Shown: positions 34,439 through 54,098, numbered from the stretch's first letter. The stretch: DNA of 64,000 bases from an uncultured Spirochaetota bacterium (GCA_963783575.1 CAWAOD010000011.1:96001-160000); one strand, 5' to 3'. Notes: generated by a model not told the origin, from the letters alone. Made by a program: numbers and translations.

Positions 34439-35389
34439 ATGTCTCATATAATATTATTTTTAATTCTTCTGGTTTTCTTATTCGGTATTTGTGCGCTTTT
34501 TTTTACAGGATACAGGCAGTTCAAATCAAAAAACCGTCATTTAAAATACATATTTTTTTTCCTGGCCGTGCTTGATTTGAAACTTCTGCTTAATTATATA
34601 CTGCTTTATTTTAAAATCAACCTTACTTTTAATTCAAGCTTCCAGTTTATACTGTATACTGTCAGCGAAGATGTTTCATATCTGCTGATTTTTCTGTTTC
34701 CGCCGGTTTTTCATTCGATTTTATCAATTCCCTGGAAAAAATTTTTCGACAGGATAGCCATTTTGGTTCTATTGGCCGCATTCATAATACGCATTATGCC
34801 GTATTTTTATAAAGCCGTTTTCCCGCAGGAATATTTTTCAATTAATACGTTTCAATTACCGGAAATTCTTGTCGGCATGGTGACTATTTATATCCCGGCC
34901 GCTATTTTAATACATTTCCGCAGTCTGAAACAGCCTATTTTAAGAAAAATCGCGATTCTGGGATTATTTTTTTATATATTTGTTTTGTTGGATACTTATT
35001 TTATATTTTATGCTATTTTTATGAACAGTTATTATTCCAGGATGATATGGCCAGGTTTTGCGCTGTATGTTTTCTGGATCGTGTTTTTAACCGTTTTTTC
35101 AAATAATACAATCAGTTCAAAAACAGTTCCTGCTTTTATGGATTCAATAAGTGATGCTTTTGTCGGGAAATATTCCCTTACTTCAAAAGAAGCCGAGATT
35201 GTAAAATGGGTCATTACAGGAAAATCCAATCAGGAAATTGCTGAGCATAATTTTCTTTCCATAAAAACCATAAAAAACCACATCTATAAAATATTTCAAA
35301 AAACCGGGGTGAAAAACCGCCTGGAGCTTACTTTATTGGTCGGTTCGAACAATCAGGAATCTCAAAAAAAGGACTCCAGTCCTATCTAA
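34439..35389 (+). CDS. Membrane-anchored LuxR-family regulator #1
   Basis: About 7 TMs, then YSLTSKEAEIV...GKSNQEIA...SIKTIKNHIYKIFQKTGVKNRLEL. Confidence 0.9.
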   Translation: MSHIILFLILLVFLFGICALFFTGYRQFKSKNRHLKYIFFFLAVLDLKLLLNYILLYFKINLTFNSSFQFILYTVSEDVSYLLIFLFPPVFHSILSIPWKKFFDRIAILVLLAAFIIRIMPYFYKAVFPQEYFSINTFQLPEILVGMVTIYIPAAILIHFRSLKQPILRKIAILGLFFYIFVLLDTYFIFYAIFMNSYYSRMIWPGFALYVFWIVFLTVFSNNTISSKTVPAFMDSISDAFVGKYSLTSKEAEIVKWVITGKSNQEIAEHNFLSIKTIKNHIYKIFQKTGVKNRLELTLLVGSNNQESQKKDSSPI

Positions 35390-35436
35390 AAAGTGACCAC
35401 GGACCTATGGATTTCTATCATTTTTGCTGTTATACT
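35370..35436 (+). promoter_or_regulatory. Palindromic operator and promoter of paralog 1
   Basis: AGGACTCCAGTCCT (35370-35383); TGGATT-N17-TATACT (35431); same layout at 49490-49556. Confidence 0.6.
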
Positions 35437-35465
35437 CAATAATACTGAAAAGTGAGGAGAATCTC

Positions 35466-36326
35466 ATGAAAGTATTTCTAATAGTCTATGCAATAATGTT
35501 ACCGTTCATATTGCTTTATCCAATGGCCAACAGGATTGAAAAGGTCCCGATGAAGGCCTACCCGGTTATCAACATCCCTGATGGAGAATTCCTGCGATAT
35601 GGTAATTATACAAGGGGAGAAAAAACTTATGATGTGGTGTTTGTCGCAAAAATAATCACTAATGAAAACGGTAATGTTTTATACCGCATCTATTCAGATA
35701 TGATAGCTTATCCCGGAGGGAAAAAACCGCAGAAAGATTATACAAAATGGCCGTCCTATTATCTGATTGATCCGCAGAAGGGTCTTGTCCTGGAAGTGGA
35801 ACAATACTTAAGCACCAACTCGGAAGAAATGAAAAACAATACGATTTATGGAATGGGAGATACCTTTTATACTCATTATATTCTCCATCAGGACACAGGA
35901 AATGTGGAATATAAAACCAAAGGCTTTAAGGATAACGGCATTATCGAAAGTTCATACAAGGCCTATATCAAACCCGGATATTCTGCCTGGGAAGGAGGAG
36001 CCTATTTTATGTTTTCCCCGCGTTTTATGGACCCTAAGAGCGGTGGTATTATGTACTTGGTTGCTCCCGCTTTTCTGAAAGACCCGGTACCAATAACGAT
36101 CATGTCTGCCGCTAAAGAAATTATAGAAACAACTGCTGGAACTTTTAATGTTATTAAAGTGAATACGATAATGGCGGACCCGTTCATTGGTAAACTGATG
36201 GAACCGATCATCAAGAGCAGCGGATATTGGATTGAGGATTCGGACCGGAAACTGTTGATAAAAATAAAGAGATCGGCGGATAATGAATCGACACTTGATG
36301 AAATTTCAAACGTAAATATAAAATAA
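35466..36326 (+). CDS. Exported protein of unknown function, paralog 1 of 10
   Basis: Signal peptide; family motifs IPDGEFL.YG, IDP..G, RF.D, TAGTF, ADPFIGKL, EDSDR, EISN; GAGGAG RBS. Confidence 0.85.
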   Translation: MKVFLIVYAIMLPFILLYPMANRIEKVPMKAYPVINIPDGEFLRYGNYTRGEKTYDVVFVAKIITNENGNVLYRIYSDMIAYPGGKKPQKDYTKWPSYYLIDPQKGLVLEVEQYLSTNSEEMKNNTIYGMGDTFYTHYILHQDTGNVEYKTKGFKDNGIIESSYKAYIKPGYSAWEGGAYFMFSPRFMDPKSGGIMYLVAPAFLKDPVPITIMSAAKEIIETTAGTFNVIKVNTIMADPFIGKLMEPIIKSSGYWIEDSDRKLLIKIKRSADNESTLDEISNVNIK

Positions 36327-36335
36327 GGAATAGTT

Positions 36336-37169
36336 ATGAAATTTTCACTGATATGCTTATTTTTTACTATTCAAGCCATTTTATTATTTTCCCTGGCAAA
36401 TAAAATAGAAAAGATACCTATGAAAACCTATCCTGTGGTCAATATCCCGGATGGGGAACTGCTTCGCTACGGGAATTATATCCGCGGAGAGAAAAATTCT
36501 GATACATATTATGTTACAAGATTGATTACTAATGAGAATGGTGTCTTATATAGAATCTACGCAAATTCAAATTACACCGCCGATTATACCAACTGGATTT
36601 CATATTATCTGATTGATCCGAAACAGGGAACGGTTCTGGAATCATGCGAACATTTAAGCACGAATCAGGAATATATGCGGGAAAACGCTAAATATGGGAT
36701 TGTCAATACCTTTTTTATTCACTATATCCTACACCGGGACAAAAAATATGTGGAATATACTGAAAAATCGCTTAAGGAAAATGGAGTATCGGAAAGCAGA
36801 TACAAGGTGGACATTAATCCCGGTTTTCCCTCCTGGGATGGCGGAGCCTTCTTTATGCTGTCGCCGCGCTTTATGGATGTAAAGAGCGGCGGAATATTCT
36901 ACTTAGTTGGGCCGGCATTCTTTAAAGAACCTGTCCCGGTAACCCTGAAATATGAAGCGAAAGCTTCTATCGGGACAAAGGCCGGAACCTTCCGTGTAAA
37001 AAAGATGGCAACGGTAATAGCCGATCCTTTTATCGGCAAGCTGATGGAGCCGTTTACAAAAGAAGGCAGTACCTGGGTTGAGGATTCCGACAGAAGGCTC
37101 CTAATCAAAATCCATAGATCGGATGAAAATGAAACATTTCTGGAAGAGATTTCGAATATACTAAAATGA
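36336..37169 (+). CDS. Exported protein, paralog 2
   Basis: Same motifs; closest to paralog 1. Confidence 0.85.
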   Translation: MKFSLICLFFTIQAILLFSLANKIEKIPMKTYPVVNIPDGELLRYGNYIRGEKNSDTYYVTRLITNENGVLYRIYANSNYTADYTNWISYYLIDPKQGTVLESCEHLSTNQEYMRENAKYGIVNTFFIHYILHRDKKYVEYTEKSLKENGVSESRYKVDINPGFPSWDGGAFFMLSPRFMDVKSGGIFYLVGPAFFKEPVPVTLKYEAKASIGTKAGTFRVKKMATVIADPFIGKLMEPFTKEGSTWVEDSDRRLLIKIHRSDENETFLEEISNILK

Positions 37170-37187
37170 AGTAAAGAGGAGTTTTTT

Positions 37188-38048
37188 ATGAAAGTATTTT
37201 CAGTGATTATATTATTTATAATTCAATCCGTTTTATTATTTCCATTGGCTAATAAGATTGAACAGGTGCCGATGAAAATAGCACCCCGTCTGACAATTCA
37301 GGACGGCGAATTATTGCGGTACGGATTTTACGCCGGCGGGGAAAAAGCCGGGGACAATTACTTTATTACCAGAATTATACAGGACGAATCAAAAAATAAA
37401 CTGGCTCAAATCTATTATCAAGCTGCCAAAATTAACTCCGGGAAAGAAATGCCTGGAAACTATACTAATTTTTCTTCCAGGTTTCTAGTTTCGATTGACC
37501 GGTGTACTCTGCTTGAGGCTGACGGTGAAGAGAAAATCGATACAAACAATCATAAGCTGGAAAATATACCATCGGGATATGCCGGTTTATTTTCCTGGCA
37601 TTATAACCTGAACACCGAAAAAGAGCAGATCGATTATGAAAATAAAATCTGGGACGGTTATGAAGTAAAATCTCGAAAAAGCCGGATTCCGGTTCATCCC
37701 GGTTTTCCATGCCGGGACTGGATGTCCGGGATGTTCTTCTCCGCCAGGTTTATGGATATCAAATGCCCGGGCGTTTTCTACTTTATTTTACCGGAAGCCC
37801 TGAAAGATCCCATACCTTTAACTTTTAAAACAATCAAAAAGGAAACCCTTACCACAAAAGCCGGGACATTCAAAACGGTTAAAATGGGGATGAATGCCGC
37901 CGATCCTTTTTTAGCCAGGCTTATCGAACCTTTTTCCAGGATGATGTACTTATGGGTTGAGGACTCGGACAGAAAGCTTATAGTGCAGATACAGCTTCCC
38001 GCCGGTTTTTTTAAGCTGGAAGAAATTTCGAATATGAATATTAAATGA
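37188..38048 (+). CDS. Exported protein, paralog 3
   Basis: IQDGELLRYG, TKAGTF, ADPFL, VEDSDRK, EEISN. Confidence 0.85.
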   Translation: MKVFSVIILFIIQSVLLFPLANKIEQVPMKIAPRLTIQDGELLRYGFYAGGEKAGDNYFITRIIQDESKNKLAQIYYQAAKINSGKEMPGNYTNFSSRFLVSIDRCTLLEADGEEKIDTNNHKLENIPSGYAGLFSWHYNLNTEKEQIDYENKIWDGYEVKSRKSRIPVHPGFPCRDWMSGMFFSARFMDIKCPGVFYFILPEALKDPIPLTFKTIKKETLTTKAGTFKTVKMGMNAADPFLARLIEPFSRMMYLWVEDSDRKLIVQIQLPAGFFKLEEISNMNIK

Positions 38049-38061
38049 GGAGTGTTTTTCC

Positions 38062-38908
38062 ATGGAAGTATTTTTGATATTATTCATATTCAGCATGCAG
38101 GCTGTTTTGCTTTATCCTATGGCCAATAAAATAGAAAAGATCCCAATGAAAACATACGGCGATACTGTGATTCCCGACGGGGAGTTTCTTCATTACATTG
38201 TCTACTTCGGCGGGGAAAAGGACTCGGATTATTATTACGTGACCAGAAAGGAAACGGATGAAAATGGGGCATTATACTACCGGATATACTATATAGCAAT
38301 TCCGGTAACGGAGGGCAAAAAGCCGCCTGAAAATTATTCAAACTGGCCCTCGACTTTCATGATCGATCCGGCGCGGGGTTCGCTCATAGAATCGGAAGTC
38401 AGGATCAATCCCAATGACTCGGTAGTGGGATAAATTCGGAGTAGGATACAAAGTTTACGTCCATTATAAGCTTTTTCGGGATAAGGGCTTTGCGGAATAC
38501 CATTCAAAAACAGTGAATGATTACGGAACGAATGAAAGGACATACATTGTGAAATTCGATACCGGCATTCCAAGTGATAGTCCGGCAGGAGCTTATATTA
38601 CGCAGAGGTTTTTAAATTTTAAAAATGGAGGCATTTGCTATTCCATCATTCCCGAAGTTATGAAAGGAGCAATGCCCAGTACCGCGAAATATATTTCTAA
38701 GGATACGGTCCGGACAAAAGCGGGGTCTTTTAATGTCGATAAATACCATATCATCATCGCAGATACTTTCATAAGTAAACTGATAGGACAAATGATGGGG
38801 GATTCTATTATGATGGTCGAAAATTCGGTCAGGCACCTGGTCGTCAAATCTGATATTCCCGGCGGCCGTGTGGAACTGGATGAAATTTCAAACATAAATA
38901 TAAGATAA
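38062..38908 (+). pseudogene. Exported protein, paralog 4 (single frameshift near 38425)
   Basis: ORF 38062-38433 continues in another frame as WDKFGVGYKVYVHYKLFRDKG... into ORF 38513-38908; collinear with paralog 9. Confidence 0.8.
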
Positions 38909-38995
38909 TTAAACCAGTATTTTTCCTCTTCTTCTTTGCAACATTTTATGAAGAAGTATAAAATTATATATTAATATTGAAGCACGTGCTTCATT

Positions 38996-39967
38996 ATGGT
39001 ATATTATAGCTTATACAAATTAAAAAGAGGGAAACCGGTGAAACATATAGATATTTTAATTCATATTTTGTGCTTATTCTCCGGGATGTTAGCTGCGCTT
39101 CTGGTGTTTTTGCTCTACCTGAAATATAAATTGAAAGTGATATGGAATTACTCTTTATTTATTTTTACGACTACTTTAACCGTAGCCGTGACAACTTATT
39201 ACAGCTATGTTTCCTATTTTATGAATTTCAGTCCGAATTCTTTTTCCATTGCAATAGGAATGCTGGTTTTCGGTATATTTTTATCGCTGATCAATTATGC
39301 TTTTTCCATGTTAGCTCTGGGTATAATGAATAAGCCTGTTTCTTTTTTTAATAAATTGTTTATTGGAATTCCCTGGTTGATAACTGCTTTATCAATAATA
39401 ACAATTATTTATTTTAACTTCGTAAAAGTAAGCTTGCCGTTTCTATCTGTAATCAATATGTTTACCGGATTAATACTGATAAATCTGTTTCTGTCATTTG
39501 TCATATACAGCATACAAATTTATATGAATTTAAAAAATATAGAAAATCCTGATTTAAAGGCTACGTTAAAAGTCCTGGCTTTTTTATTCATTATTTATAT
39601 ACCTCTACAGGCCGTTGTGATAGCATTTATAAAGCAGACGGTTATTATCTTTCTTTCACGCAATATCTTTTACTTTTTGGTTAACACGATTAGTGTCATT
39701 TTTGCTGCCAGATACTTTTTTATGAATACGCCTTCAATAATGGAACACATAGAAATTTCAGGTCATTTTATGAAGATATTTTCGGTAACAAAAAGGGAAA
39801 AAGAGGTGATAGAGCTTCTTTTGAGCGGATTATCCATAAAGGAAATCAGCGGAAAATTGATACGCTCTTTTAAAACCGTAAATAATCATATCTATAATAT
39901 TTACCGGAAAACAAATGTCAACAGTAAAATGGAGCTGTTGAATCTTATTAAAGAGAATCGCATTTAA
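38996..39967 (+). CDS. Membrane-anchored LuxR-family regulator #2
   Basis: About 7 TMs, then VTKREKEVIELL...KEIS...KTVNNHIYNIYRK; likely GTG start at 39038. Confidence 0.9.
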   Translation: MVYYSLYKLKRGKPVKHIDILIHILCLFSGMLAALLVFLLYLKYKLKVIWNYSLFIFTTTLTVAVTTYYSYVSYFMNFSPNSFSIAIGMLVFGIFLSLINYAFSMLALGIMNKPVSFFNKLFIGIPWLITALSIITIIYFNFVKVSLPFLSVINMFTGLILINLFLSFVIYSIQIYMNLKNIENPDLKATLKVLAFLFIIYIPLQAVVIAFIKQTVIIFLSRNIFYFLVNTISVIFAARYFFMNTPSIMEHIEISGHFMKIFSVTKREKEVIELLLSGLSIKEISGKLIRSFKTVNNHIYNIYRKTNVNSKMELLNLIKENRI

Positions 39968-40047: not shown

Positions 40048-40836
40048 ATGATAAGAATTTTGTTATTATTTATCGTTTTAGCGTTCGTTCTTCAAGGTTG
40101 TGCACCAATTTCCATAACGAGAAGCAATTATAGAAATCCTATGCCGGATAGTATCCGGCTGTCGCCGGATGTAACCCTGACACCGACCGGAGAAGTTCAT
40201 ATATTTGTCGCCGGTCTAGTCAATACGGATTTTTATCCTTCCAGTTTCAGGATTGATGCTTCCGGAAAAGTTATTTATATTGATCCTGTGGAGGTAGACG
40301 GACAAGCATTTGCGGATTACATATTCATTACCCATGCGCATGGCGATCATCTTTCTCTGCCTGACATAAAAAAGCTGTCGAAAAACAATACTCTGATAAT
40401 TTGTCCGGAAATGGCCGCAGATAGACTTTCGGATTATAAGATAAGAGTAATAAAACCGGGGGATATAATTGATTTTGGAGATATTAAGTGCGAGGCCGTT
40501 GCGGCATATAATATTAACTCAGGACTTTTCGGATTGACCGCTCATCCAAGGACGGATAAGAACGTAGGTTATATACTGACCATTAGCGGCATAAGAATTT
40601 ATCATGCGGGGGATACGGATTTAATACCGGAAATGAAGGGGATTAAGAATATAACCGCGGCACTGGTTCCCATCGGAGGAGGAAATCTAACTACGGGGCC
40701 GGCGGAGGCCGCGGAGGCAATAAATATAATCAAACCTTTGATTGCCATACCAATGCATTATGTGCCGGGAACAAACCAGGCTGAAACATTCAAAAAGCTG
40801 GTTGATACAGGAATTCAGGTGAGAATAATGAAATAA
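40048..40836 (+). CDS. MBL-fold metallo-hydrolase lipoprotein
   Basis: Lipobox LQG-C; THAHGDH, YHAGDT, IPMHY. Confidence 0.88.
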   Translation: MIRILLLFIVLAFVLQGCAPISITRSNYRNPMPDSIRLSPDVTLTPTGEVHIFVAGLVNTDFYPSSFRIDASGKVIYIDPVEVDGQAFADYIFITHAHGDHLSLPDIKKLSKNNTLIICPEMAADRLSDYKIRVIKPGDIIDFGDIKCEAVAAYNINSGLFGLTAHPRTDKNVGYILTISGIRIYHAGDTDLIPEMKGIKNITAALVPIGGGNLTTGPAEAAEAINIIKPLIAIPMHYVPGTNQAETFKKLVDTGIQVRIMK

Positions 40837-40879
40837 AATAAAGGAGATATAAAATAAAATTAAAAAGTGTTTAATAATT

Positions 40880-41045
40880 TCCCCTCCTACGGATGGGCTA
40901 GGGGTGGGTTCCTTCGATAGTGCTGTTGAGCATGAAGCCGAGGAATCAGGAATCGGTCGTCGTGGTTCGACAAGCTCATTGAAATATCCTAAATCCGGTT
41001 CTTGAGTCTGCCGAAGGTCTCAGTGCATCGCTCCGTAGGAGGGGA
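40880..41045. repeat. MITE/REP-like element with 14-bp terminal inverted repeats
   Basis: TCCCCTCCTACGGA (40880-40893) / TCCGTAGGAGGGGA (41032-41045); nested TTCGACAAGCTCA...TGAGTCTGCCGAA. Confidence 0.7.
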
Positions 41046-41406
41046 GTTTACAGAACAAGGTTTTATTTGTAAATATAGTATTAAATTATCAACTTATATT
41101 TATAAAACTTTTGACAATACTCAGATTATTTAAAGAGGATAATTATGAATAAAGCTCTGCGGTTTGATTTTGGGATATTGATCCTACTGATATTTTTTGC
41201 AGAGAGGGGCTTCCCGGTGGGCATTAAAGAAAAAATACCAATGAAGCCCTATGAGGTTATTAAAATTCCAGACGGAGAATTTCTTCACTATGTTAATTAT
41301 ACCGGCGGTGAAAAGGACAGTGATACCTATATGGTTACAACTATAGAAACGGGCAAAAATGGAGAAACCGTTTACCGTATTTATTTTGACCAGATATCGC
41401 TATCTA

Positions 41407-42539
41407 GTGCTTAATTGCGTAAGTTAACGATAGTATTTCTTAATTGAGAACCTTTCACTTCCCGTTTTCTCCACACAAAAGGTTTTGCGGTTTCAGTGTA
41501 TGCTTTAACAAATGCATCTATTGCTTCTCTCAATTCTTCCGTGTTTTTAAAACTGGCGCCTCTAAGAGCTTTTCGGCTCATAATACCAAACCATATTTCC
41601 ACCTGATTTAACCAACTTGCCGAAGTAGGCGTGTAATGAAAAAAAACATTCTTATTCCGGGATAACCATTCATCGTTCTTTTTGTGAATACAATAATTGT
41701 CTAAAATTACATGAATTTCTTTATCTTTTGAAACATCTACCACCACTCTATCCATAAACTCAAGAAATTCAATACGTCTTTTGTATTCAGTAGTTTGGGT
41801 GTGTATTAACCCTGTAGCTACTTCCAGCGCAGCAAATAGGTTCAGCGTTCCATTTCTTTTATATGTACTTTTGTATCCTCTTACAATTTTTCCATTATCC
41901 GTCTCTACATAGCCGGTTGTCCTTTCCAACGCTTGAATACCAGGTTTTTCGTCTACAGATATAACCAATGCATTCATCGGCGGATTTAAATACAACCCAA
42001 TAATATTTGTGGCTTTTGTCGAAAATTCAGGATCAGTGCTGACACACCAACTTCGCTGTCGGGATAAGCAAATTCCTTCTTTTCTTAAAACCCTCCATAC
42101 CGCATGCGTTGATGTGTTTAAATGTTTTGCTAAAGCCGGACCATCCCAAATTGCCTGCCCGATAGGCGGTGTTTTTTCCAGAGTTTCTAAAACTTTGTCC
42201 CTGAAATTCTGCCCATATATTTTTGGCTTTCCTGACCTGGGCAGATCATACAATCCATCAATTCCTTTTTGCTGAAATCTTTTTTTCCAATCAATAACCG
42301 TATTTGGTCTTATGTGAAGGTCAGCCGCAATCTCAGATACATTTTGTCCTTTCAGGCTATTGACAATTATTTTCGCCCTCTCTACAAGTCGCGCTTCCAT
42401 AGTTCGGCTTCTCACCCAACTATCAAGAATAATTTCATCCGCTTTGGTGCATGTTATAACTTGCGTTTTCTTAGACATACAACCTCCTTTTTTATGTCTA
42501 AGATTATAATTAATAACGCTTATTATTGCAATTAAGCAC
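41407..42539 (-). mobile_element. IS630-family insertion sequence
   Basis: TIRs GTGCTTAATTGC/GCAATTAAGCAC; TA duplication (41405-41406, 42540-42541) in a CTAG site. Confidence 0.93.
41411..42478 (-). CDS. IS630 transposase, apparently intact
   Basis: HTH N-terminus, DLPRSGKP, VDEK, ILDN, YTPTSASWLNQVEIWF. Confidence 0.93.
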   Translation of the reverse strand: MSKKTQVITCTKADEIILDSWVRSRTMEARLVERAKIIVNSLKGQNVSEIAADLHIRPNTVIDWKKRFQQKGIDGLYDLPRSGKPKIYGQNFRDKVLETLEKTPPIGQAIWDGPALAKHLNTSTHAVWRVLRKEGICLSRQRSWCVSTDPEFSTKATNIIGLYLNPPMNALVISVDEKPGIQALERTTGYVETDNGKIVRGYKSTYKRNGTLNLFAALEVATGLIHTQTTEYKRRIEFLEFMDRVVVDVSKDKEIHVILDNYCIHKKNDEWLSRNKNVFFHYTPTSASWLNQVEIWFGIMSRKALRGASFKNTEELREAIDAFVKAYTETAKPFVWRKREVKGSQLRNTIVNLRN

Positions 42540-43171
42540 TAGTACAAAAAAGCTTCCTGTAAATTTTACTGACTGGCCGTCATTTACCAGAATAGATCCA
42601 AAGCGAGGCTCCGTTATGGAATGGGAAGAAACTTACGATACGAATGCATCGATTTATAAAAATAATGAAAATGCTTACTATCCTTACTATTTTCAATATA
42701 AATATTTTCCCGAAAAAGGTTATGTTGATGAGTTTATAAAATCAATAAAAGGGAATCAAACTTCCGATGTAAAATATCATGTGAAAGTGAATCCTGATTT
42801 TCCGATATGGGATCAAATTTCATTCGGATTTCATTCTGCGCGCTTTATAGATGCAAAGAGCGGAGGCATTGCGTATATGATTGCTCCTTTTATGATAAAA
42901 GATCCTGCACCGGTCACTTTCAAATATATTTCAACCGAAACAATTAAAACAAAAGCCGGGGTTTTCCGTGCAAATAAAATCAATATTGTTGTTGCGGACG
43001 CTTTCATTGGTAAACTTATGGAGCAGGTGATGAAAACCTCGGCGCTCTGGATCGAAGATTCCGATAGAAGGATTCTTTTAAAAGTACAATTGATGGGAAA
43101 TGATACAATTTTAGAGGATATTTCAAACGTTAAATAATATAATTTAGAATAATTAATTTATGGAGTAAAAT

Positions 43172-43858
43172 ATGGCTATTGAAATCAAGACAATTAATAC
43201 AGGAGTGAATTGCTATCTTCTTAAAACCGGATTAGATTTTTTCCTGATTGATACCGGTTTTTCCTCAAAAAAAGCATTGTTAGTCAATGAACTTGAGAAC
43301 GCCGGCTGCAATCCGGGCAACCTTAAACTTATCATTTTAACTCATGGCGATATTGATCATACAGGCAATTGCGCTTATTTAAGGGAAAAATACGGCACAA
43401 AAATAGTAATGCATAATGATGATACCGGAATGGCGGAAAACGGCGATATGAGTTTAAACAGGAAAAATAAGCCGGATAAAGTCTCTATAATTTTCAGATT
43501 AATTGGAGTTTTTTTCGGCGGTTCTATAAAATATGATAAATTTAAACCGGACATTATTATTGAGGGCGGGCAGGATCTTTCCGAATTTGGCTACAATGCA
43601 AGAATAATTCATATTCCAGGGCACTCAAAAGGTTCAATCGGCATTCTGACAGCCGAGGGAAGTCTGTTTTGCGGTGATCTGCTTATTAATTTCATTAAGC
43701 CGGGTTTTCATTTTTATATTGACAGTATGGCCGATGCAAAATCAAGCATTGAAAAACTATCAAAATTTAAAATTGATACCGTCTACCCCGGGCATGGCAG
43801 GCCATTCATCTGGGAGAAATTTCTGAAAAATTATCATAAGAAAAATAATAAGAAATAA
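43172..43858 (+). CDS. MBL-fold metallo-hydrolase
   Basis: LIDTG, THGDIDH, PGHSKGS, CGD, YPGHG. Confidence 0.88.
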   Translation: MAIEIKTINTGVNCYLLKTGLDFFLIDTGFSSKKALLVNELENAGCNPGNLKLIILTHGDIDHTGNCAYLREKYGTKIVMHNDDTGMAENGDMSLNRKNKPDKVSIIFRLIGVFFGGSIKYDKFKPDIIIEGGQDLSEFGYNARIIHIPGHSKGSIGILTAEGSLFCGDLLINFIKPGFHFYIDSMADAKSSIEKLSKFKIDTVYPGHGRPFIWEKFLKNYHKKNNKK

Positions 43859-44720: not shown

Positions 44721-45137
44721 ATGAACATAAAGGTGTTTTATCAATCAAAGACTGGAAATACAAAAAAGGTGGCTGATGCGATGGCTGCAGCAGCGGGTTG
44801 TGAAGCCCTGCCGACGGCTAATGCCCATCAACCGGTCGAAGCTGATTTATTGCTTATTGGAGGGGCGGTTTACGCAATCTATGACCATGATATCCATCCG
44901 GATTTAAAGCGGTTTATCGGCAGCCTTGATTCCCGAAAAATTAAAAGGGCGGCGGTTTTCTGTACCGGTTTTCAGGAAGCGGCAAATAATATTATGAAGA
45001 ACCTGTTAGAAAAAAGAGGCATTCCAGTGGAGAAGGAAAGTTTTACCTGTAAAGGTAAATTTCTTCTTTTTAATTTTGGACATCCCGACAAAGTAGATCT
45101 GAATAATGCGAAAGAGTTTATCGGAAGGTTTTTGTGA
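44721..45137 (+). CDS. Flavodoxin-like protein
   Basis: YQSKTGNTKKVADAMA FMN loop. Confidence 0.85.
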   Translation: MNIKVFYQSKTGNTKKVADAMAAAAGCEALPTANAHQPVEADLLLIGGAVYAIYDHDIHPDLKRFIGSLDSRKIKRAAVFCTGFQEAANNIMKNLLEKRGIPVEKESFTCKGKFLLFNFGHPDKVDLNNAKEFIGRFL

Positions 45138-45152: not shown

Positions 45153-45620
45153 ATGAATATAGGTATTATCGTTTTTTCAGGAACAGGAAATACCCTTTCT
45201 GTTGCACAAAAGCTTAAAGAAAAATTATCATCAATTGGTCATACCGCAGTCCTGGAACAGATTAAGGTTTCGGGTTATAATCCGCGGAAAATTGGCAATT
45301 TTCAATTTACCGATGTGCCCGATGCCGGACGGTATGATGCGATTGTTTTTACGGCCCCCGTGCAGGCTTTTTCTCTGTCACCGGTTATGAAAAAATATTT
45401 TGAACGGTCCGGTTCACTGAAGGGCAAGAAGGCTGCCTGCCTGGTAACACAATATTTTCCATTTTCCTGGATGGGCGGCAGGCAGGCGATCGGCTGGATG
45501 AAAAATTTCTGTGTATCCAAAGGCATTGAAGTCCTGGGAACAGGGATAGTGAATTGGTCAAAAAAAGACCGCGATCATCAAATAGTTGAAGTAGTCGACC
45601 GGTTAAGCGGATTATTTTAA
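45153..45620 (+). CDS. Flavodoxin-like protein
   Basis: FSGTGNTLSVAQKL FMN loop. Confidence 0.85.
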   Translation: MNIGIIVFSGTGNTLSVAQKLKEKLSSIGHTAVLEQIKVSGYNPRKIGNFQFTDVPDAGRYDAIVFTAPVQAFSLSPVMKKYFERSGSLKGKKAACLVTQYFPFSWMGGRQAIGWMKNFCVSKGIEVLGTGIVNWSKKDRDHQIVEVVDRLSGLF

Positions 45621-45645: not shown

Positions 45646-46389
45646 ATGAATGCAAAAAAGAATGAACTTAATTCTGATATAGTTGATTCACCATGGAAGG
45701 TTATATGCAGGATCGGGGGGATAGCTGCTATTATTTTTATTGTTTATTCCCTTGTCACTTTCATAGTTTTATTTAAATTAGGCGCAGGCACCGATACCGT
45801 TTTGGAGTATTATACTTTGTTGCATAATAATAGAATTGAGGGCCTTTTAAAGCTCGATATACTGACCGCTATATGCATGCCGCTGTATTACCTGCTATTT
45901 TTTGGGATCTACGCTGCGCTCAGGAAAACCGAGGGAGCGCTTACAGCTCTGGGTACGATTTTTATATTCATAGGGGTTACACTTTTCCTTGCTACACCTT
46001 CCGTTTTTTCTATGGCATACTTAAGTGATCAATATGCTGCGGCTATCACCGATTCACAAAGATCACAGCTCCTGGCGGCGGGAGAAGCCGTAATGGCTTC
46101 AGATATGTGGCATGGCACCGGGGCTCGCATCGGCGGTTTTATCATTGAAAGTGCCGCCCTGTTTATATCATTTGTTATGTTTCGGAGCAAGGTTTTTGGG
46201 AAATTGACGGCTTATGTTGGAATTATTACTAACGGTCTCGACCTGATACATATTATTGTAAACGTTTTCCAGCCGGGTATCGGCTCTGTTCTTATGGCCA
46301 TCTCCGGTACGCTATATCTTGCCTGGTTTCCGCTGTTAGCCTGGAGGCTTTTACAATTAGGGCATATTGATAGAAAAGGCATTTCATAA
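45646..46389 (+). CDS. Membrane protein, DUF4386-like
   Basis: About 6 TMs; LSDQYAAA...QLLAAGEA; FRSKVFGK. Confidence 0.6.
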   Translation: MNAKKNELNSDIVDSPWKVICRIGGIAAIIFIVYSLVTFIVLFKLGAGTDTVLEYYTLLHNNRIEGLLKLDILTAICMPLYYLLFFGIYAALRKTEGALTALGTIFIFIGVTLFLATPSVFSMAYLSDQYAAAITDSQRSQLLAAGEAVMASDMWHGTGARIGGFIIESAALFISFVMFRSKVFGKLTAYVGIITNGLDLIHIIVNVFQPGIGSVLMAISGTLYLAWFPLLAWRLLQLGHIDRKGIS

Positions 46390-46503
46390 TAAAAACGGCA
46401 ATATATAAAAAGAGTTTCTAACACAAGGTTGTGTTTTTAAATGCAACCTTGTGTTAGAAGACTGGAGAATACAGTTGATGAGATGGCAAATGGAGGAAAT
46501 TTT

Positions 46504-47362
46504 ATGAACCGGCTATTAAAAATTTTTATCGGGGGCCTTTTTTTAATTTTGTTTTTCACAGCCGGCGCTTTTTCGATGGGAAACAACAAGCTTGTTCCAA
46601 TGAAGTTATATCCGGCAGTTGATATTCCCGACGGGGAGTTCCTTCATTACGGATTTTTATCCGCAGGAGAAAAGTCTTCGGACTATTATTTTGTTACCAG
46701 AAAGATAACTGACGGGAAAGGAGGTTTTTTTTACCGTTGTTATGAGGACATAATTTCAATTTCAAGCCGCAGGAAACCCGATAAAAATTATACCAGCTGG
46801 CCAATTTATTATGATATTGACCCTAAACTCGGTTCGGTTATAAGCTCGGTGGGAAATTTGACCGCTGAAGACACTAAAGATTGGCCCAAAGCCCCCTCCG
46901 GAGAAATCTTTTTATCCTGGAATTACCGGCTGGACAATGATAAAGGCACAGTGGAATACAGTTCAAAAATGCTAAAAGGCAAAGAAACAAACGAGAGTAA
47001 ATCCCTTGTGAAATTCAGCACCGGTTTTCCCAGCACCGACCAGTGGGGGGGATCAACATTATTCCGTCTATTAGACCCCCGAAGCGGCGGCGTATATTAT
47101 GTAATTACCGCGATGTATATGAAGGAGCCAATGCCGTTTACCATAAAATATATTTCTACAGAAACCATTGAAACGAAAGCCGGGACTTTCCGTGTAGACA
47201 AATTGAATAACCTACCCGGAGACCCATTTCTTGGAAAAACTTCTGGAACCGATGATGAAGACTTCAGGATACTGGATTGAGGATTCAAAAAGGAGACTTC
47301 TTGTAAAAGATGAGATGGTGGGGGCCGGTGTTATACTTGAAGAAATTTCAAATGTAAAATAA
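46504..47362 (+). pseudogene. Exported protein, paralog 6 (+1 A at 47235-47239; may be a sequencing error)
   Basis: Removing one A restores GKLLEPMMKTSGYWIEDSKRRLLVK...LEEISNVK* ending at 47362. Confidence 0.8.
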
Positions 47363-47483: not shown

Positions 47484-48360
47484 ATGAAACAAGGATTGCG
47501 AGTATTATTTGTCTTATCATTATTAATAACGGTTTTTATGTTCGATTCCTGTTCAAAGAAAGGCATAAACTTTATTCCCAAGAAAGTATTTTCAGTTATT
47601 AATATCCCCGATGGTGAGTTCCTTCATTATGGCACTTATTTCGGCGGAGATAAAATCCTTGATCAATATTTTGTTACAAAGATAGAAACAAATTTAAACG
47701 GAGGCATTAATTTCAGAATTTACTGTAATTTTATATCCGTTTCGGATACTAAAAATAATCCAGGATATTTTACTAACTGGCCGATGGTAATGATAATCGA
47801 TGCGGCAAGCGGTTCCGTTATTGAATCGGAAGGAAAATTAAGCACAAACACCTTGCAGTTGCAGGCATTTGAAGAAGCCGGAATCAGGGGCCTGGTCTAC
47901 TGGCATTATCAATTATTCCAGAATAAAGGATATGTTGATTATACCTCAAAATCTTTAAAGGGCGAAGAAACGGTAACAAAGAGATTCAAGATTTATGTAA
48001 AACCCGGTTTTCCGCTTTTTGACGCTTTTTCAATCAATATATTTTCAAACCGGCTTATCGATCCGGACAGCCCGGGAATCATGTACTCGGATTATCCCGA
48101 ATTTTTTTAAGGAACCTTTGCCTATTTCAACCGGGATTGAAAAAAAAGAAATTGTAACGACTAAAGCGGGAACATTTAAGGTAAATATAATAAATACAAT
48201 TGTCGGGGACGCTTTTATCAACGCGCTTGTGGGCCCTGTTTTAAAAAACACCAGCCACCTGGTTGAGGACTCGGACAGAAGGCGTATAATAAAACGGGAG
48301 GTTCCGGGAGGGGGGACTGTTCTTGAAGAGATTTCAAACGTGAATGTAAACCGGCCGTAA
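47484..48360 (+). pseudogene. Exported protein, paralog 7, lipoprotein-type signal (+1 frameshift near 48090-48108)
   Basis: FMFDS-C lipobox-like; continues as IIPNFFKEPLP...TKAGTF...VEDSDRR...EEISN in the next frame. Confidence 0.8.
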
Positions 48361-48365
48361 TAAAA

Positions 48366-48456
48366 GTCACCCTGAGCCCCTTCCCTTCGACTATCGCTCA
48401 GGGAAAGCTACTCAGGACAGGTAATTGTAACCATACTTCGTCAGGCTCAGTATGAC
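48366..48456. repeat. REP-like nested palindrome
   Basis: GTCACCCTGAGCC...GGCTCAGTATGAC outer imperfect IR; inner CCCTTCGACTATCGCTCAGGG. Confidence 0.65.
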
Positions 48457-48551
48457 GATGGCAGTAATAAATGAGTTTTAGAATTGCCCTAAAAAAAATA
48501 ATGTGAAGGTTCATACTCGCATAAATCATCTCTTAAGAAGGATTAATAATA

Positions 48552-49469
48552 ATGGAATATCTGTTTACCGCGGCTTTTCTGATTTTGTGGATTTTATGCG
48601 CGGTTGCTCTATCTTTTTCGCTATTTTTTTCTTATAAAACCGGGAACCGGATATGGAAATTTTATTCAATATTCTATGTCTATCTGAATATTAAAATATT
48701 TTTTCATTTAATCCAGATTTATTTAAAATCCAGCCTTCCTCTTGAAAATATTTCCCAAATTTACTGGTTTGGAATTCATTCCGATGTGTCTTTACTTTTA
48801 TGCCTGTCTTTTCCAATTCTATTTCAAACTTTGACGGATGTTCCGGGCAGGAAAATACTGAACAGAATCTGCGGCATATTTTTGATATTGATTGCTCTTA
48901 TAGAAATGAATCCTTATCTGGTACAATTGATATACGGGCCTGACTCATACTTCTTTTCAATTCCTTACCTGGATAACATTTTACTTTTCCTTTCCGCCAT
49001 ATATAATTTTATAATATTTCTCTTTAATTACGGAAAAATCAAACTTTCTGAACAGAAACGGTCTGCCGTAAGCCTTCTCGCTCTATTTATGTTTTTCTTG
49101 ATTGACCACTTTTTTATTTTATTGCGGCTGTTTTTCAATCCATTAAATATCATTATGAGCTGTTTCAACATTCTGTTTTATGTCACCTGGAATATCGTCT
49201 TTTTCCGTTATCTCATTCAGGGTTTTATCAGAATTCCTGATAATTTAATGGGTATCAACCTTGAACATTCTTTTATAAAAAGATACAACCTGACGGATCG
49301 GGAAAGTGAAATTGTGAATATGCTGATTCAGGGAAAAACCAATCCATCCATCGGTGAAAAACTGTTTTTATCGATTAAAACCGTTAAAAACCATATTTAT
49401 AAAATTTACCGGAAAACAGGTGTAAAGAGCCGTATTGAACTGGCTTATCTGATTAAAAACATGAAATAA
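48552..49469 (+). CDS. Membrane-anchored LuxR-family regulator #3
   Basis: About 7 TMs, then YNLTDRESEIV...LSIKTVKNHIYKIYRKTGVKSRIEL; HTH closely resembles #1. Confidence 0.9.
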   Translation: MEYLFTAAFLILWILCAVALSFSLFFSYKTGNRIWKFYSIFYVYLNIKIFFHLIQIYLKSSLPLENISQIYWFGIHSDVSLLLCLSFPILFQTLTDVPGRKILNRICGIFLILIALIEMNPYLVQLIYGPDSYFFSIPYLDNILLFLSAIYNFIIFLFNYGKIKLSEQKRSAVSLLALFMFFLIDHFFILLRLFFNPLNIIMSCFNILFYVTWNIVFFRYLIQGFIRIPDNLMGINLEHSFIKRYNLTDRESEIVNMLIQGKTNPSIGEKLFLSIKTVKNHIYKIYRKTGVKSRIELAYLIKNMK

Positions 49470-49489
49470 TAAATAGATAAAATAAAAAA

Positions 49490-49556
49490 AGGACTATTGT
49501 CCTATCAGTAACATACCAAAGTCCCATTGATTTTCGAGACTCTCAGAAATTATAAT
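49490..49556 (+). promoter_or_regulatory. Palindromic operator and promoter of paralog 8
   Basis: AGGACTATTGTCCT (49490-49503), TTGATT, TATAAT at 49551; 61-nt offset to the -10 box, as at 35370. Confidence 0.6.
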
Positions 49557-49583
49557 TAATGCAGGTTTCGGGGAGGCAGTTTT

Positions 49584-50450
49584 ATGAATATTAGATTCGT
49601 TTTTGTTACAGGATTATTTTCACTTATGATCGGTTCGCTGACAACGGTTTATCCGATGGGTGGTAAAGTTAAAATATTTCCTATGAAAACATATTCCTAT
49701 ATCAATATTCCCGATGGTGAATTTCTCGATTATGGGGTTTATACTGGCGGAGTAAAGAAAGAGGATATTTATTATGTTATAAAAAAGGAAACTAATGCCA
49801 AAGGAGGTATTTATTACCGTATTTATACTGATACAATATCTATTACGAATAATAAACTGATCCGGAAAAATTACACGAACTGGCCGGGATTTTCCATTAT
49901 TGATCCAAAACAGGGGGCGGTTATTGAAGCGGAGAAGTACTTCGACACTAACTCTCTAGCAGATTTCAGCGCTGTCGGGGGTAATATCTTCTATTATCAT
50001 TATCAGTTAAATGATGACAGAGGTTATGTGGATTTTGTATCGAAAACAAAAAGCAAGGAGGATGTCATATCAACAACGCACAGCAGGGTAAATGTTCAAT
50101 CCGGTTCCCCTGTGTGGGATAGAGGATCGATGTGGATGTTTTCTACGCGATTTATGGACTTTAAAAGCGTAGGGGTAGTGTTTTTGATTGTCCCGGAGGT
50201 CTTAAAAACACCTTTATCCTGTACATTTACGTTTATTTCAAAGGAAACCATTTCGACTAAAGCGGGAACATTCCGGGTTAATAAGGTAGGTTTTATGGTT
50301 TCGGATCCTTTTCTTATGAAGCTGATGGGCTGGATGGCAAAAGATGTATACTCATATGTGGATGAATCTGACAGGAGAATTATGGTAAAAACTCATACTC
50401 CATCCTCTGAATGGGTGCTTGAGGAGATTTCTAATGTGAATTTGAGATAG
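49584..50450 (+). CDS. Exported protein, paralog 8
   Basis: IPDGEFLDYG, IDPKQG, TKAGTF, SDPFL, ESDRR, EEISN. Confidence 0.85.
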   Translation: MNIRFVFVTGLFSLMIGSLTTVYPMGGKVKIFPMKTYSYINIPDGEFLDYGVYTGGVKKEDIYYVIKKETNAKGGIYYRIYTDTISITNNKLIRKNYTNWPGFSIIDPKQGAVIEAEKYFDTNSLADFSAVGGNIFYYHYQLNDDRGYVDFVSKTKSKEDVISTTHSRVNVQSGSPVWDRGSMWMFSTRFMDFKSVGVVFLIVPEVLKTPLSCTFTFISKETISTKAGTFRVNKVGFMVSDPFLMKLMGWMAKDVYSYVDESDRRIMVKTHTPSSEWVLEEISNVNLR

Positions 50451-51837: not shown

Positions 51838-52032
51838 ACGACGATATTACAATACCGACTAATAAGATCGAGATCCTGTTTTGAATCATACCTGATAGAA
51901 TGGCAACTTCTTATCGGTTTAGGCGATACAATGGGCAAAAGAAAGGGAAAATCTGAAAAAATTAAAAATAAAAACCGTTTATCCGGGGTATGGAAATAAA
52001 TTTTATTCTTTCATTAAACTGGGAGGTTTACT

Positions 52033-52723
52033 ATGAATGAAATCGAAATTTATTATTTTTCAGGTACTGGAAAACAAACGGAAAACTTATACCTTTGGCC
52101 TCCGTGACGAATAAAGAAAGCATAAGTACCGATGCCGGTATAATTGGAATTATATTCCCGGTTTATTATCTTTTCAACGGGGGAAAACCGCTTATCATAG
52201 AACGATTTGTTAAAAACCTGAAAAACATTGATTTAAAATAAATATTCGCTGTATGCAAAACTGCTTTTTACGGGGTACGGCAATCAATCAATAGAATAAA
52301 ATGATCCGGAAGTATGGCGATAAGCTTTCGGCATGATTTGCAGTACAGATGCCCTATAACTATACTGACTGGTTAGAATGTTCGATAACTGGAAGATAAA
52401 GCTTGATATGATTCATGAAATCGTTAACCTAAAAGAGAAAGTAAATTTGAAACAAGTTCTAATATCAGCGAAGCTTTGTTAGGTTTGATCGGTTTAAGGA
52501 AAAATGCCAAATCTCATTATAATTGAAAGCCAATTTCAAGAAAGATCCGGGTCTTTCTTTTAATGAAATCTTGCCCTTTATGGACAGGAGCTACCGTTAC
52601 AATGAGAACTGTAATGGCTGTGGCATATGCTCGAAGATTTATCCCGTAAATAATAGAAATGAGACCTGCAATGGTACCTGGAGGAAGCAATATTTAGATA
52701 TGTTAAGGCAGGATTTGCCTTAA
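52033..52723 (+). pseudogene. Decayed flavodoxin-ferredoxin (EFR1-like) gene
   Basis: GGAGG RBS, MNEIEIYYFSGTG, IGIIFPVY, and later CNGCGICSKIYPVNN, separated by stops and frameshifts. Confidence 0.7.
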
Positions 52724-52763
52724 AAGGATTCCAAATTATAATAGTAAAAAATGGAGGAATAAT

Positions 52764-53603
52764 ATGACCGGTTTTTTAAGGTTTTTCTTTTTGGTAGCGA
52801 TTTTATTTTTAATTTTTCTGACTTGTGCTTTTCCGATGGGAGCGAAAAATGAAAAAATACCATTAAAGCCCTATCCGGTTATTGACATCCCGGACGGGGA
52901 GTTTCTCCATTACGGAAACTATTCGCATAGTGAAAAGTATGGTGACACCTATATGGTTATTAAAAAGGAAGCAAATGAAAGCGGGGATTTTAATTACCGT
53001 ATTTATAAGGACGATATACGCATATCGGGCGGGAAAAAGCTTCCGGAAAATTATAAAGACTGGCAGTCATCTTTCCTTATAGACCCGAAACGCGGGTCCG
53101 TTCTTGAAGCCTCTGAAAACCTTGGTTATGACCGCGAGGGTGATTCAGGAACCGCAAACTATAATTACAGGTTATATCCCGAAAAGGGCTATGTCGATTT
53201 TGTATCGAAAACTATAAAGAATAAAGTTTTATCTGAAAGTAAATACCGTGTTAAAGTAAATCCGGATTTTCCTGCCTGGGATAATTTTTCTATGTATTAC
53301 GCGCCGTGTTTTCTTGATAACCGGAGCGGGGGAATTATGTATTTGATAAATCCTGCTTTTTTCAAAGAACCTTTGCCGGTTTCATTTAAGCATTTATCAG
53401 CCGATACGATTCGGACAAAAGCCGGAACCTTCCGTACTTCTAAAGCGGTAATAATCTTTGCCGATGCCTTTATCAGCAAACTTATGGAACCTTTATTAAA
53501 AGGAACCGCAATGTGGGTTGAGGATTCTGACAGAAGGATTTTAATTAAAGCAGAGATGGCGGGATATGTAGCCTTTATAGAGGAAATTTCCAATGTGAGA
53601 TAA
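52764..53603 (+). CDS. Exported protein, paralog 10
   Basis: IPDGEFLHYG, IDPKRG, TKAGTF, ADAFISKL, VEDSDRR, EEISN. Confidence 0.85.
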   Translation: MTGFLRFFFLVAILFLIFLTCAFPMGAKNEKIPLKPYPVIDIPDGEFLHYGNYSHSEKYGDTYMVIKKEANESGDFNYRIYKDDIRISGGKKLPENYKDWQSSFLIDPKRGSVLEASENLGYDREGDSGTANYNYRLYPEKGYVDFVSKTIKNKVLSESKYRVKVNPDFPAWDNFSMYYAPCFLDNRSGGIMYLINPAFFKEPLPVSFKHLSADTIRTKAGTFRTSKAVIIFADAFISKLMEPLLKGTAMWVEDSDRRILIKAEMAGYVAFIEEISNVR

Positions 53604-53609
53604 TAAGAT

Positions 53610-54098
53610 ATCGGCGGCTGCACCGTATTTGATTTAAATCTGCCCGAAGTTCGAGTCCTCAAACTTATTATTTTAACCCATGGAGACCCGGATAATGCAG
53701 GCAATTACGCTTATCTGCGTGAGAAATACAAAACAAAAATCACTATGCATAGAGGCGATTTGATTCTCGTTAAAGACAGAGTGATGTCAAACGTGAAAAT
53801 TAAGTCTTTAATTTTACAATCTATGAGGATTTTGATTTTTCACCTTATGGATTAAATGCAAAAGTTTTATATCTACAGGACCATACGCTGGGTTCGATAG
53901 GAGTACTTACTTCGGAAGGTGACTTCTTTTGCGGCGATATTTTCAGCAATTCAGGCAGGCCTGTGGTCTCAATGTCTGTTGAAAATTCAGTGATTTAAAT
54001 CAAGCTTAAACAGGCTAAAGAATTTAAATATAAAAAAGGTATATACGGGCCATAGAAAACCATTTAAAATGGGATTGCTTATAAAAAATTATCGGTAA
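53610..54098 (+). pseudogene. Decayed MBL-fold hydrolase, related to 43172-43858
   Basis: Remnants LKLIILTHGDPDNAGNYAYLREKYKTKI, GHTLGSIGVLTSEGDFFCGD, VYTGHRKPF with no start and several stops. Confidence 0.7.

Follow-up and report, generated by a model that had tools for sequence, protein, structure and literature searches.

In the co-component systems VtrA/VtrC and ToxR/ToxS, a membrane transcription factor is followed by a fast-evolving exported beta protein that, according to the available text of the sources, may bind lipid. A similar order is found in a block at positions 34439..54098 of a 64,000-nt stretch of DNA (GCA_963783575.1 CAWAOD010000011.1:96001-160000, hereafter the window) from an uncultured Spirochaetota bacterium, where ten copies of an exported protein family lie with three transmembrane LuxR-type regulators (TM-LuxRs, or sensors). 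Unlike VtrA/VtrC, the sensor is multi-pass, carries a C-terminal LuxR helix-turn-helix (HTH) and has no periplasmic domain; the partner is a predicted 15-strand spiral and not an 8-strand lipocalin, a separate promoter lies between the genes, and partners are swapped. Judged by linkage and a shared promoter box, the family copies are very probably transcriptional outputs of these sensors, and likely direct ones, by binding that is predicted from sequence. The whole is a real regulon, apparently undescribed and made of known kinds of parts; the literature searched, with subscription papers and supplements largely outside it, held no description of the family or of its pairing with TM-LuxRs. Coordinates below are those of the window, G000 is the source genome, other G numbers are relatives, and L numbers are fetched loci.

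As reported for Eggerthella lenta (PMC9734109, available text), transmembrane LuxRs with 10-12 helices activate neighbouring genes in response to specific small molecules, and AguR is listed among the transmembrane regulators. DadR, HcdR and CadR of that species share with our sensors the membrane domain, the C-terminal PF00196 HTH and the genome-wide expansion. The present sensors differ in having seven helices (6-7 by hydropathy) and not 10-12, and their targets are exported beta-spirals and not molybdenum/flavin enzymes. Spirochaetota are enriched in membrane regulators of this kind (PMC10269533, available text); LuxR is not mentioned in the available part of a recent phylum-wide spirochaete preprint.

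Among exported proteins, the closest families are DUF3108 (PF11306) and DUF3108-like (PF21347), with the YmcC-like fold of BF2203 (3FZX). The likeness lies in an exported, beta-rich protein and in weak hidden Markov model (HMM), Atlas and Foldseek matches; our family is longer (~280 aa), has 45 copies in one genome and is tied to TM-LuxRs, and the window proteins that were scanned stay under the DUF3108 cut-off. No function is given for DUF3108 in the available text of the papers found with that term. Brucella EipB (DUF1849) is alike in its signal peptide, similar length and open beta-spiral (~14 strands in EipB) with a helical plug. It is a periplasmic, cup-shaped spiral with a ~66% hydrophobic lumen able to hold small molecules and a putative carrier function (10.1101/551135, available text). 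Identity to EipB, PA1994 and BDI_3050 is 8-11%, and our family is multi-copy with its own sensors, without a conserved disulfide or a DUF1849 match. In the GfcB (YmcC)-GfcC-GfcD system of the E. coli group 4 capsule, GfcB, a LolA-like beta protein, binds the outer-membrane barrel GfcD of the same operon (PMC8592465, available text), as is suggested here for a conserved clade. The fold match to GfcB is weak (Z 6.7), and our clade stands with an Omp85-like barrel and a second barrel in a lipid and not a capsule context.

Linkage of the sensors to family copies

The initial annotation described three ~7-TM proteins with a C-terminal LuxR HTH, each heading a sub-block. PF00196 was over its cut-off in all three, with 7, 6 and 6 segments by hydropathy, and the AlphaFold model of the 34439 protein showed seven long helices before the HTH, joined by short loops. 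The second sensor (38996) is first followed by a metallo-beta-lactamase (MBL)-fold lipoprotein and not by a family copy. A Foldseek search with the sensor gave HTH-level matches only, none at E up to 0.001, and left the membrane domain unmatched.

The source genome encodes 22 LuxRs with 6-7 hydrophobic segments and 300-365 residues. A family copy lies downstream or divergent within 3.5 kb of 13 of them (nine within 300 bp), compared with 126/4113 called genes and 1/15 other LuxRs (Fisher p 4e-15 and 0.002). Counted by clusters of family copies, 11/27 have a TM-LuxR within 3.5 kb. The linkage recurs in the relatives G001, G006, G008 and G010, where the homologues are multi-copy and LuxR-linked rather than single and unlinked; no sensor-copy pairing was seen in the fetched loci of G004, G005, G011 and G017. 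The other 9/22 TM-LuxRs have no copy within 3.5 kb, and their neighbours include an efflux channel, a glycoside hydrolase family 5 (GH5) cellulase and an esterase lipoprotein. The sensor family is wider than the exported one, occurring in 22/41 genomes.

A tandem promoter box behind the sensors

The gaps between a sensor and its first copy, of 65-225 bp, hold a predicted promoter. Sensors 1 and 3 are each followed by two GGAC-N4-GTCCTAT-like boxes, spaced 23 and 22 bp, respectively; the second box runs into the -35 element, and the -10 element follows at normal spacing. Tandem boxes beside a -35 element are generally a mark of activation. The sensors, promoters and family copies of the block are:

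34439..35389, + strand: TM-LuxR 1, 316 aa, seven predicted membrane helices and C-terminal GerE/LuxR HTH; PF00196 E 1.5e-15; AlphaFold pLDDT 87.6
35371..35436, + strand: predicted LuxR-activated promoter 1; boxes 35371-35385 and 35394-35408 (23 bp apart); -35-like TGGATT 35408-35413, 17-nt spacer, -10-like TATACT 35431-35436; matrix score 14.1 (training site)
35466..36326, + strand: family copy 1, intact, 286 aa; DUF3108 E 0.0019, under cut-off
36336..37169, + strand: family copy 2, intact, 277 aa; 58-60% identity to copy 1
37188..38048, + strand: family copy 3, intact, 286 aa; most closely related to the copy that the orthologous sensor heads in G010 (L067)
38062..38908, + strand: family copy 4, frameshift near 38430; ~60% identity to copy 9
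38996..39967, + strand: TM-LuxR 2, 323 aa, divergent type; PF00196 over cut-off
41145..43137, + strand: family copy 5, split by an IS630 element; 5' part 41145-41410, 3' part 42538-43137
46504..47362, + strand: family copy 6, frameshift in an A-run near 47235
47484..48360, + strand: family copy 7, lipobox-like Cys; frameshift near 48090
48552..49469, + strand: TM-LuxR 3, 305 aa; PF00196 E 1.6e-16
49491..49556, + strand: predicted LuxR-activated promoter 3; boxes 49491-49505 and 49513-49527 (22 bp apart); TTGATT 49527-49532, 18-nt spacer, TATAAT 49551-49556; matrix score 15.2 (training site)
49584..50450, + strand: family copy 8, intact, 288 aa
50980..51837, + strand: family copy 9, intact, 285 aa; one weak box (50778, score 6.6) lies ~200 nt upstream
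52764..53603, + strand: family copy 10, intact, 279 aa; modelled member (pLDDT 91.2, 15 strands)

The self-repeat score peaked at lag 23 (6.2 vs 3.4). It exceeded the 90th percentile of 2595 controls in 10/18 LuxR-adjacent regions and in 0/15 copies directly behind another copy; the remaining classes gave 6/41 ("other") and 5/21 ("operon" copies). A box matrix trained on nine own-genome junctions reached a log-likelihood of 78, compared with 45-50 for shuffles. When 2591 upstream regions were scanned with it, family genes made up ten of the top 15, two of them held out, with sensors 1.5 and 3.3 kb upstream. Four of the nine held-out LuxR-adjacent copies stood at the 99th percentile, and 14 hand-picked promoters aligned on the tandem-box layout. 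The matrix also picked a small transporter gene that separates a sensor from two copies, and an esterase lipoprotein facing a TM-LuxR (L045:4891-7345, G000:C16:305890-308347; score 11.7). Since this lipoprotein has the same upstream box, the regulon appears to extend beyond the family. A palindrome-forced motif search returned AT-rich noise only and was dropped; a first free motif search locked onto LuxR coding sequence and was dropped and redone on trimmed regions.

Sensor control of the copies, proposed in the initial annotation, is thus supported by both the genome-wide linkage and the box. Several points weigh against it. The lags of 21-23 and the first box pattern were chosen after inspection of the sequence, and two of the 18 junctions follow a MalT-type and not a membrane LuxR. 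One of the four held-out matches (L066) falls in the LuxR coding tail, off the aligned box. Copies far from a sensor are mostly without the box (3/76 at the 99th percentile), the common-type box was not found behind sensor 2, and 16/27 clusters have no TM-LuxR within 3.5 kb.

We also observed a long MalT-like LuxR (874 aa in G010, split in G000) that heads a family copy with a different, conserved upstream repeat, CAATACC (L013:4929-6390, L070:1998-5549).

Pairing of sensors and copies

The sensors had been taken as dedicated to their copies. One-to-one dedication did not hold, as orthologous sensors head different paralogs across genomes and many TM-LuxRs have no copy nearby. Behind the closest relatives of sensors 1 and 3 stand copies that share just 32% and 39% identity with the first copies of the window. 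For sensor 2, the orthologue in G008 (L075, 53% across the membrane part) heads a pair of family copies, and the closest paralog of sensor 3 (G000:C9:10080) has a copy with the same box 1.5 kb downstream. In G010, the orthologue of sensor 1 heads the sister of copy 3, which suggests insertion of copies 1 and 2 behind a promoter already in place.

These pairings bear on the possibility that the copies are co-sensors like VtrC/ToxS or RseB/MucB, which would bind a ligand, dock on their own sensor and form a feedback loop. The sensor-then-barrel-protein order matches that of co-component cassettes (PMC9214523, available text), and RseB and MucB are among the fold neighbours (Z 6.5-7.7, see below). 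In three pairs of orthologous sensors the partners are orthologous as well (L037/L055, L019/L051, L027/L048), and the Mantel correlation of sensors with copies in the own genome was rho 0.32 (p 0.018). Over 17 pairs, however, rho was 0.10 (p 0.17), and the two close sensor pairs named above head unrelated copies. Moreover, a promoter lies between the two genes, whereas VtrA and VtrC overlap (available text of the source), the sensor has short inter-helix loops only, and 45 copies face 13 linked sensors. We consider co-sensors quite unlikely.

Predicted fold and conservation

A likeness to DUF3108-like exported beta proteins had been noted by eye. It is supported by structure prediction followed by Foldseek and a wide structural search, which returned a DUF3108-like/EipB-like fold, and by weak HMM matches and Atlas neighbours. 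The AlphaFold model of copy 10 (pLDDT 91.2, pTM 0.83) is built of short helices and 15 antiparallel strands, and its fold is predicted to be an open, cup-shaped 15-stranded beta-spiral like EipB, BF2203 (DUF3108/YmcC-like) and LolA. In the wide structural search, the best bacterial match was EipB (6NTR; Z 11.7, root-mean-square deviation (rmsd) 4.0, 195 aligned), with BDI_3050 (4FVS; Z 10.6, rmsd 3.7, 164 aligned), PA1994 (Z 8.8, rmsd 4.5, 154 aligned) and MucB/LolA/VioE/RseB (Z 6.5-7.7; LolA/LolA_like range 5-7.6) below it. The top match overall was a eukaryotic sperm axoneme chain, 9fqr_Xh (Z 12.7, 6% identity). Foldseek matched 6NTR at E 3.1e-5 and 3FZX (BF2203) at E 3.8e-5 (prob 1.00, TM 0.36/0.45).

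The DUF3108 (PF11306) HMM gave 13.5-23.3 bits or no match for the window proteins, with a gathering cut-off of 26 bits; among wider members, 17/29 matched at E up to 0.1 (best 9.4e-7). The nearest Atlas clusters were DUF3108 at 0.94, with a recognition value under the threshold, which makes this modest evidence. The DUF1849 profile had no match at E up to 0.1 in window or wider members, and no Cys column as for a conserved disulfide was found over 91 sequences. Pfam LolA and LolA_like matched no family member, PF17131 being matched by neighbouring genes instead. An integral outer-membrane barrel was considered for the family and is disfavoured: many strand positions are Lys/Glu-rich, and window-type copies have no aromatic C-terminal residue.

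The scaffold motifs described for the ten paralogs are present in the sequence. The variable middle described with them was also found, though variation is not confined to it, with entropy >3 bits also at residues 82-95, 173-181, 228-232 and 263-271 (52764 protein). The polar residues E46, Y81, R182, D185, K201 and D234 are conserved at 91-96% over the 91 sequences. This would suit enzymes built on a LolA-like scaffold, as VioE, that modify imported or exported lipophilic compounds; VioE is itself a fold neighbour (Z 7.5), and the conserved clade stands among biosynthetic enzymes. However, no column is invariant over the same sequences, and the conserved set consists mostly of Gly, Pro, aromatic and charge-pair positions, as in a scaffold. 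The family proteins scanned matched no characterised enzyme family in Pfam or NCBIfam. An enzymatic role is therefore highly improbable in our estimate.

A conserved clade in a lipid biosynthesis and export cluster

One clade of the family is 67-75% identical across five genomes and is the sole family match in G011; its homology to the window type has an hhalign probability of 99.5. Its gene order is conserved: a B12 radical-SAM gene, the family gene, a 375-aa and a 300-aa barrel-like protein, a methyltransferase and a deacetylase. A family copy lies directly before the Omp85-like barrel gene at seven loci in six genomes, in five of them within a lipid cluster. The cluster contains ketosynthases, acyl carrier proteins, an AMP-ligase (acyl-CoA ligase), an aromatic ammonia-lyase, a FabA-like dehydratase, a thioesterase and acyltransferases, together with an FtsX-type ATP-binding cassette (ABC) system (LolCDE-like exporter) and a LolA-like protein. 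It may resemble aryl-polyene or ladderane-type clusters. Copies also adjoin FtsX-FtsX-LolA-like operons in L019, L054, L066, L076 and L090, and L014 of G000 keeps the order sensor-copy-copy-barrel-barrel. This context points to a lipid-carrier origin of the family.

The larger barrel fell in an Atlas Omp85-superfamily cluster at 0.96, with the family named on 28% of members, which makes it a lead only; neither barrel-like protein had a Pfam or NCBIfam match. When the cluster copy of G006 was modelled together with its barrel, the predicted complex scored 0.51, compared with 0.00 for the best control (contacts agreeing at least 79%, partner pLDDT at least 85), and lends weak support, the mark being reached by 116/157 solved complexes and 2/215 mismatches and, at or below 0.60, by 18/157 and both mismatches. 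Metagenome loci fetched by the barrel contained a family gene in 6/10; three of the six are the same as or nearly identical to the G004 and G010 genes, and the other four loci are short or cut upstream.

The same neighbours would be expected if the exported proteins were cargo or a surface part of the ABC/LolA-like/barrel module, that is, a sensor-induced panel for nutrient capture or adhesion. About 27/93 N-termini fit a rough lipobox pattern, the weak barrel complex does not tell carrier from cargo, and other TM-LuxRs adjoin the GH5 cellulase, esterase lipoprotein or efflux channel mentioned above. Most copies, however, have no lipobox, the fold neighbours EipB and LolA are periplasmic, and a clade so well conserved within the lipid cluster suits a carrier of the cluster product. 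We regard surface cargo as unlikely.

Further observations concern the cluster itself, which is large, conserved in Brevinematales and of a polyketide/fatty-acid type. Its loci are L064, L071, L087, L089 and L092 with L093-L100 (G006, G010, G008, G004 and G011). It includes three B12 radical-SAM genes in G004, a lipid A acyltransferase-like gene and Borrelia P13-like proteins; G000 has no close orthologue of the radical-SAM gene (best 30%). The barrel pair (~375 aa, apparently without POTRA, and ~300 aa) travels together with FtsX-FtsX-LolA-like genes, also in GC-rich lineages (L014:6660-8666, L064:4877-6949, L120-L125).

Selection on the copies

The initial annotation read the copies as a diversifying repertoire, possibly of decoy or immunity proteins. 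Among 36 pairs at 55% identity or more, the whole-gene ratio of nonsynonymous to synonymous substitution rates (dN/dS) was 0.07-0.16 in the 21 with measurable dS, the other 15, including both pairs with window copies, being saturated. At the whole-gene level, the measurable ratios argue for kept functions and against an arms race, and ongoing diversifying selection is unsupported.

A role in immunity to protein toxins or antimicrobial peptides, or as decoys for them, would fit a large, lineage-restricted and shuffled family with broken copies. Hydrolases, flavodoxins and SMR, MATE and MFS genes recur nearby, and a Burkholderia DUF3108 gene adjoins a gene needed for sensitivity to contact-dependent growth inhibition, without itself being hit (PMC4364669, available text). 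Apart from the low dN/dS, however, no toxin, secretion gene or immunity domain was recognised among the 24 block open reading frames (ORFs) scanned. NCBIfam was blank for the copies scanned, PADLOC gave 0 matches in 5/5 copies scanned, and the frameshift rate of the family (8/44) did not stand out from that of background genes (6/68, p 0.16). We find this role very unlikely.

Proposed mechanism

We give an even chance to the copies being inducible periplasmic carriers or sinks for lipophilic molecules, switched on by neighbouring seven-helix LuxR sensors. Ligand capture, one of the roles first suggested for the block, is supported as the likeliest job by the fold class and the neighbours. The membrane domain would read a small molecule or a membrane disturbance, by analogy with DadR, HcdR and CadR of Eggerthella. 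The HTH would then bind both boxes, which are spaced 22-23 bp with the second up against the -35 element, and activate the downstream genes. Their products, for which signal peptides are seen, would be exported and presumably reside in the periplasm, soluble or lipid-anchored. Each paralog may bind its own range of lipophiles, as fold and neighbours suggest. The ligands could be passed to or from the outer-membrane barrel or the LolCDE-like exporter, or buffered, alongside co-located hydrolases, flavoproteins and transporters.

A bolder version is possible and more doubtful, namely that a lipid-export carrier was co-opted as an inducible chemical-capture library. Each sensor would read one membrane-active class (antimicrobial lipid, signal or nutrient) and induce soluble beta-spiral scavengers with matching pockets, and paralogs would be recruited behind the existing box. 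If true, DUF3108/EipB-like folds would gain a first function, and the sensor-plus-sink logic would be new.

The case for carriers or sinks must be set against the following. A shared fold shows no function, and no ligand is described for EipB, BF2203, BDI_3050 or PA1994 in the available text of the literature found. Most copies, including all ten in the window, have no adjoining barrel or ABC gene. Of the seven LolA-like genes in G000, three have a copy within 5 kb (p 0.013), in favour of an export context; the profile behind this proximity test was built from genes adjoining family copies, which biases it. The tree is midpoint-rooted only, so that any "ancestral" status is inferred.

The DUF3108/YmcC/EipB-like fold gains two handles here, a copy in a lipid biosynthesis/export cluster and copies under sensors with a readable box. 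A reporter of sensor, box and promoter could reveal inducers, which would be candidate ligands of the induced proteins. The seven-helix LuxR class, with its 22 members in one genome, also offers possible biosensor parts.

Scale, integrity and history of the family

All ten co-oriented ~280-aa genes were confirmed, each with an N-terminal hydrophobic stretch and one (47484) with the lipobox-like Cys. The initial annotation did not mention how far the family extends across the genome, that four copies are broken, the promoter box or the connection with lipid-export machinery. The six intact copies (35466, 36336, 37188, 49584, 50980, 52764) are 33-60% identical and, because tblastn E between them is <1e-42, related far beyond chance. 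In the assembly, 4/10 copies are broken, three of them (38062, 46504 and 47484) by frameshifts and one (41145) by the IS630 insertion. The three frameshifts may be read errors; protein P0014, from another contig of a second assembly, has a different frameshift at the same site as copy 46504.

The block had been called an island; it is not an isolated one but the largest of 27 clusters. With an iterated profile, the genome was found to hold 45 copies on 9/18 contigs, of which 35 are intact, nine split and one a fragment. Among the 40 relatives searched, 7/11 of the same taxonomic family and 1/2 of one further family matched; no genome gave more than 20 matches, and those of the same family ranged from 0 to 20. 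When 400 other genomes were sampled from the phylum and scored on at most six candidates each, the same eight matched and no others. The family was found in genomes of Brevinematales (Spirochaetota) and in none of the other spirochaetes sampled. An exhaustive search gave 165 clusters at 50% identity, and because the GC-rich metagenome contig L121 (GC 0.61) also holds a member, the range is somewhat wider. A search of solved structures with the family profile returned one match (E 0.25), not a relative, and a single-protein scan of the genome contigs gave 47 pattern matches, 0 confirmed.

In midpoint-rooted trees with nine window copies placed (38062 left out), the smallest clade with all nine comprised 49/98 sequences, and the nearest relative lay in another genome for 6/9. 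Recent tandem duplication was rejected as the origin of the block on these grounds; copies 1 and 2 are the only clear local duplication among intact copies. The LuxR-linked copies are spread through the tree, with the box retained in spite of changing partners. The family likely began as a carrier of the lipid-export module and expanded long ago, its copies being reshuffled behind sensor promoters. A conserved trio of a DUF4004 gene, a bactofilin-like gene and a family copy was also seen in three genomes (L035, L050, L083).

Neutral birth and death, in which copies spread with mobile DNA and drifted while the LuxR link was inherited from a few old cassettes, would account for the IS630 insertion, the decayed neighbours, the dispersed repeats in gaps and the uneven match numbers among same-family genomes. 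It sits poorly with 35/45 copies intact at 33-60% identity with low dN/dS, and with the scattering of LuxR-linked copies and the retained box just described. We rate it the least probable of the explanations weighed here.

Other features of the block and the window

The remaining features of the block are:

40048..40836, + strand: MBL-fold hydrolase with lipoprotein-like signal; PF13483 E 2.8e-23
about 41404..42544, - strand: IS630-family insertion sequence; transposase 41411-42478, DDE_3 E 1.9e-21
43172-43858 and 43923-44603, + strand: two cytoplasmic MBL-fold hydrolases, far under the cut-offs of beta-lactamase and lactonase models
44721-45137 and 45153-45620, + strand: two flavodoxin-fold proteins
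45646..46389, + strand: membrane protein; weak DUF4386 match, E 0.049
52033..52700, + strand: decayed flavodoxin/4Fe-4S gene; intact relatives adjoin family copies in L023, L047, L068 and L073
53655..54095, + strand: decayed MBL-fold hydrolase gene (tblastn, three frames)

At 0.33-0.41, the GC content of the block is near the contig's value of 0.37. The IS630 element has 12 further genome copies at 99.8% identity or more by blastn; with 13 copies at 99.8-100%, it appears to have been recently active. Short imperfect inverted-repeat elements at 40857-41068 and 48416-48507, presumably REP-like, each have about a dozen dispersed relatives in the genome. A 21-nt inverted repeat (46416-46459; 90% complementary, 2-nt gap) lies a short way upstream of copy 6. 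A generic promoter scan found 102 promoter-like sites, compared with 73 in shuffles, and terminators were at chance level. An Rfam scan of the window had no match inside the block, its sole match being a tRNA gene at 5587-5657 (- strand).

Upstream of the block, a transposase-like ORF at 28565-29320 (- strand) resembles by eye an IS110-family remnant. At 29837-32645 (- strand) there is an ArsR-like gene and then glutamate-cysteine ligase-like and ATP-grasp genes, which by eye resemble a split glutathione synthetase. An ORF of 517 aa at 32683-34236 (- strand), lipoprotein-like and weakly matched by CBM11 (E 3.7e-5), is divergent from sensor 1. Downstream, a Tet-like MFS efflux gene, far under Tet cut-offs, is found at 54120-55361 (- strand), and a phosphonate C-P lyase-like operon (phnG-L by eye) at 55636-60494 (+ strand).

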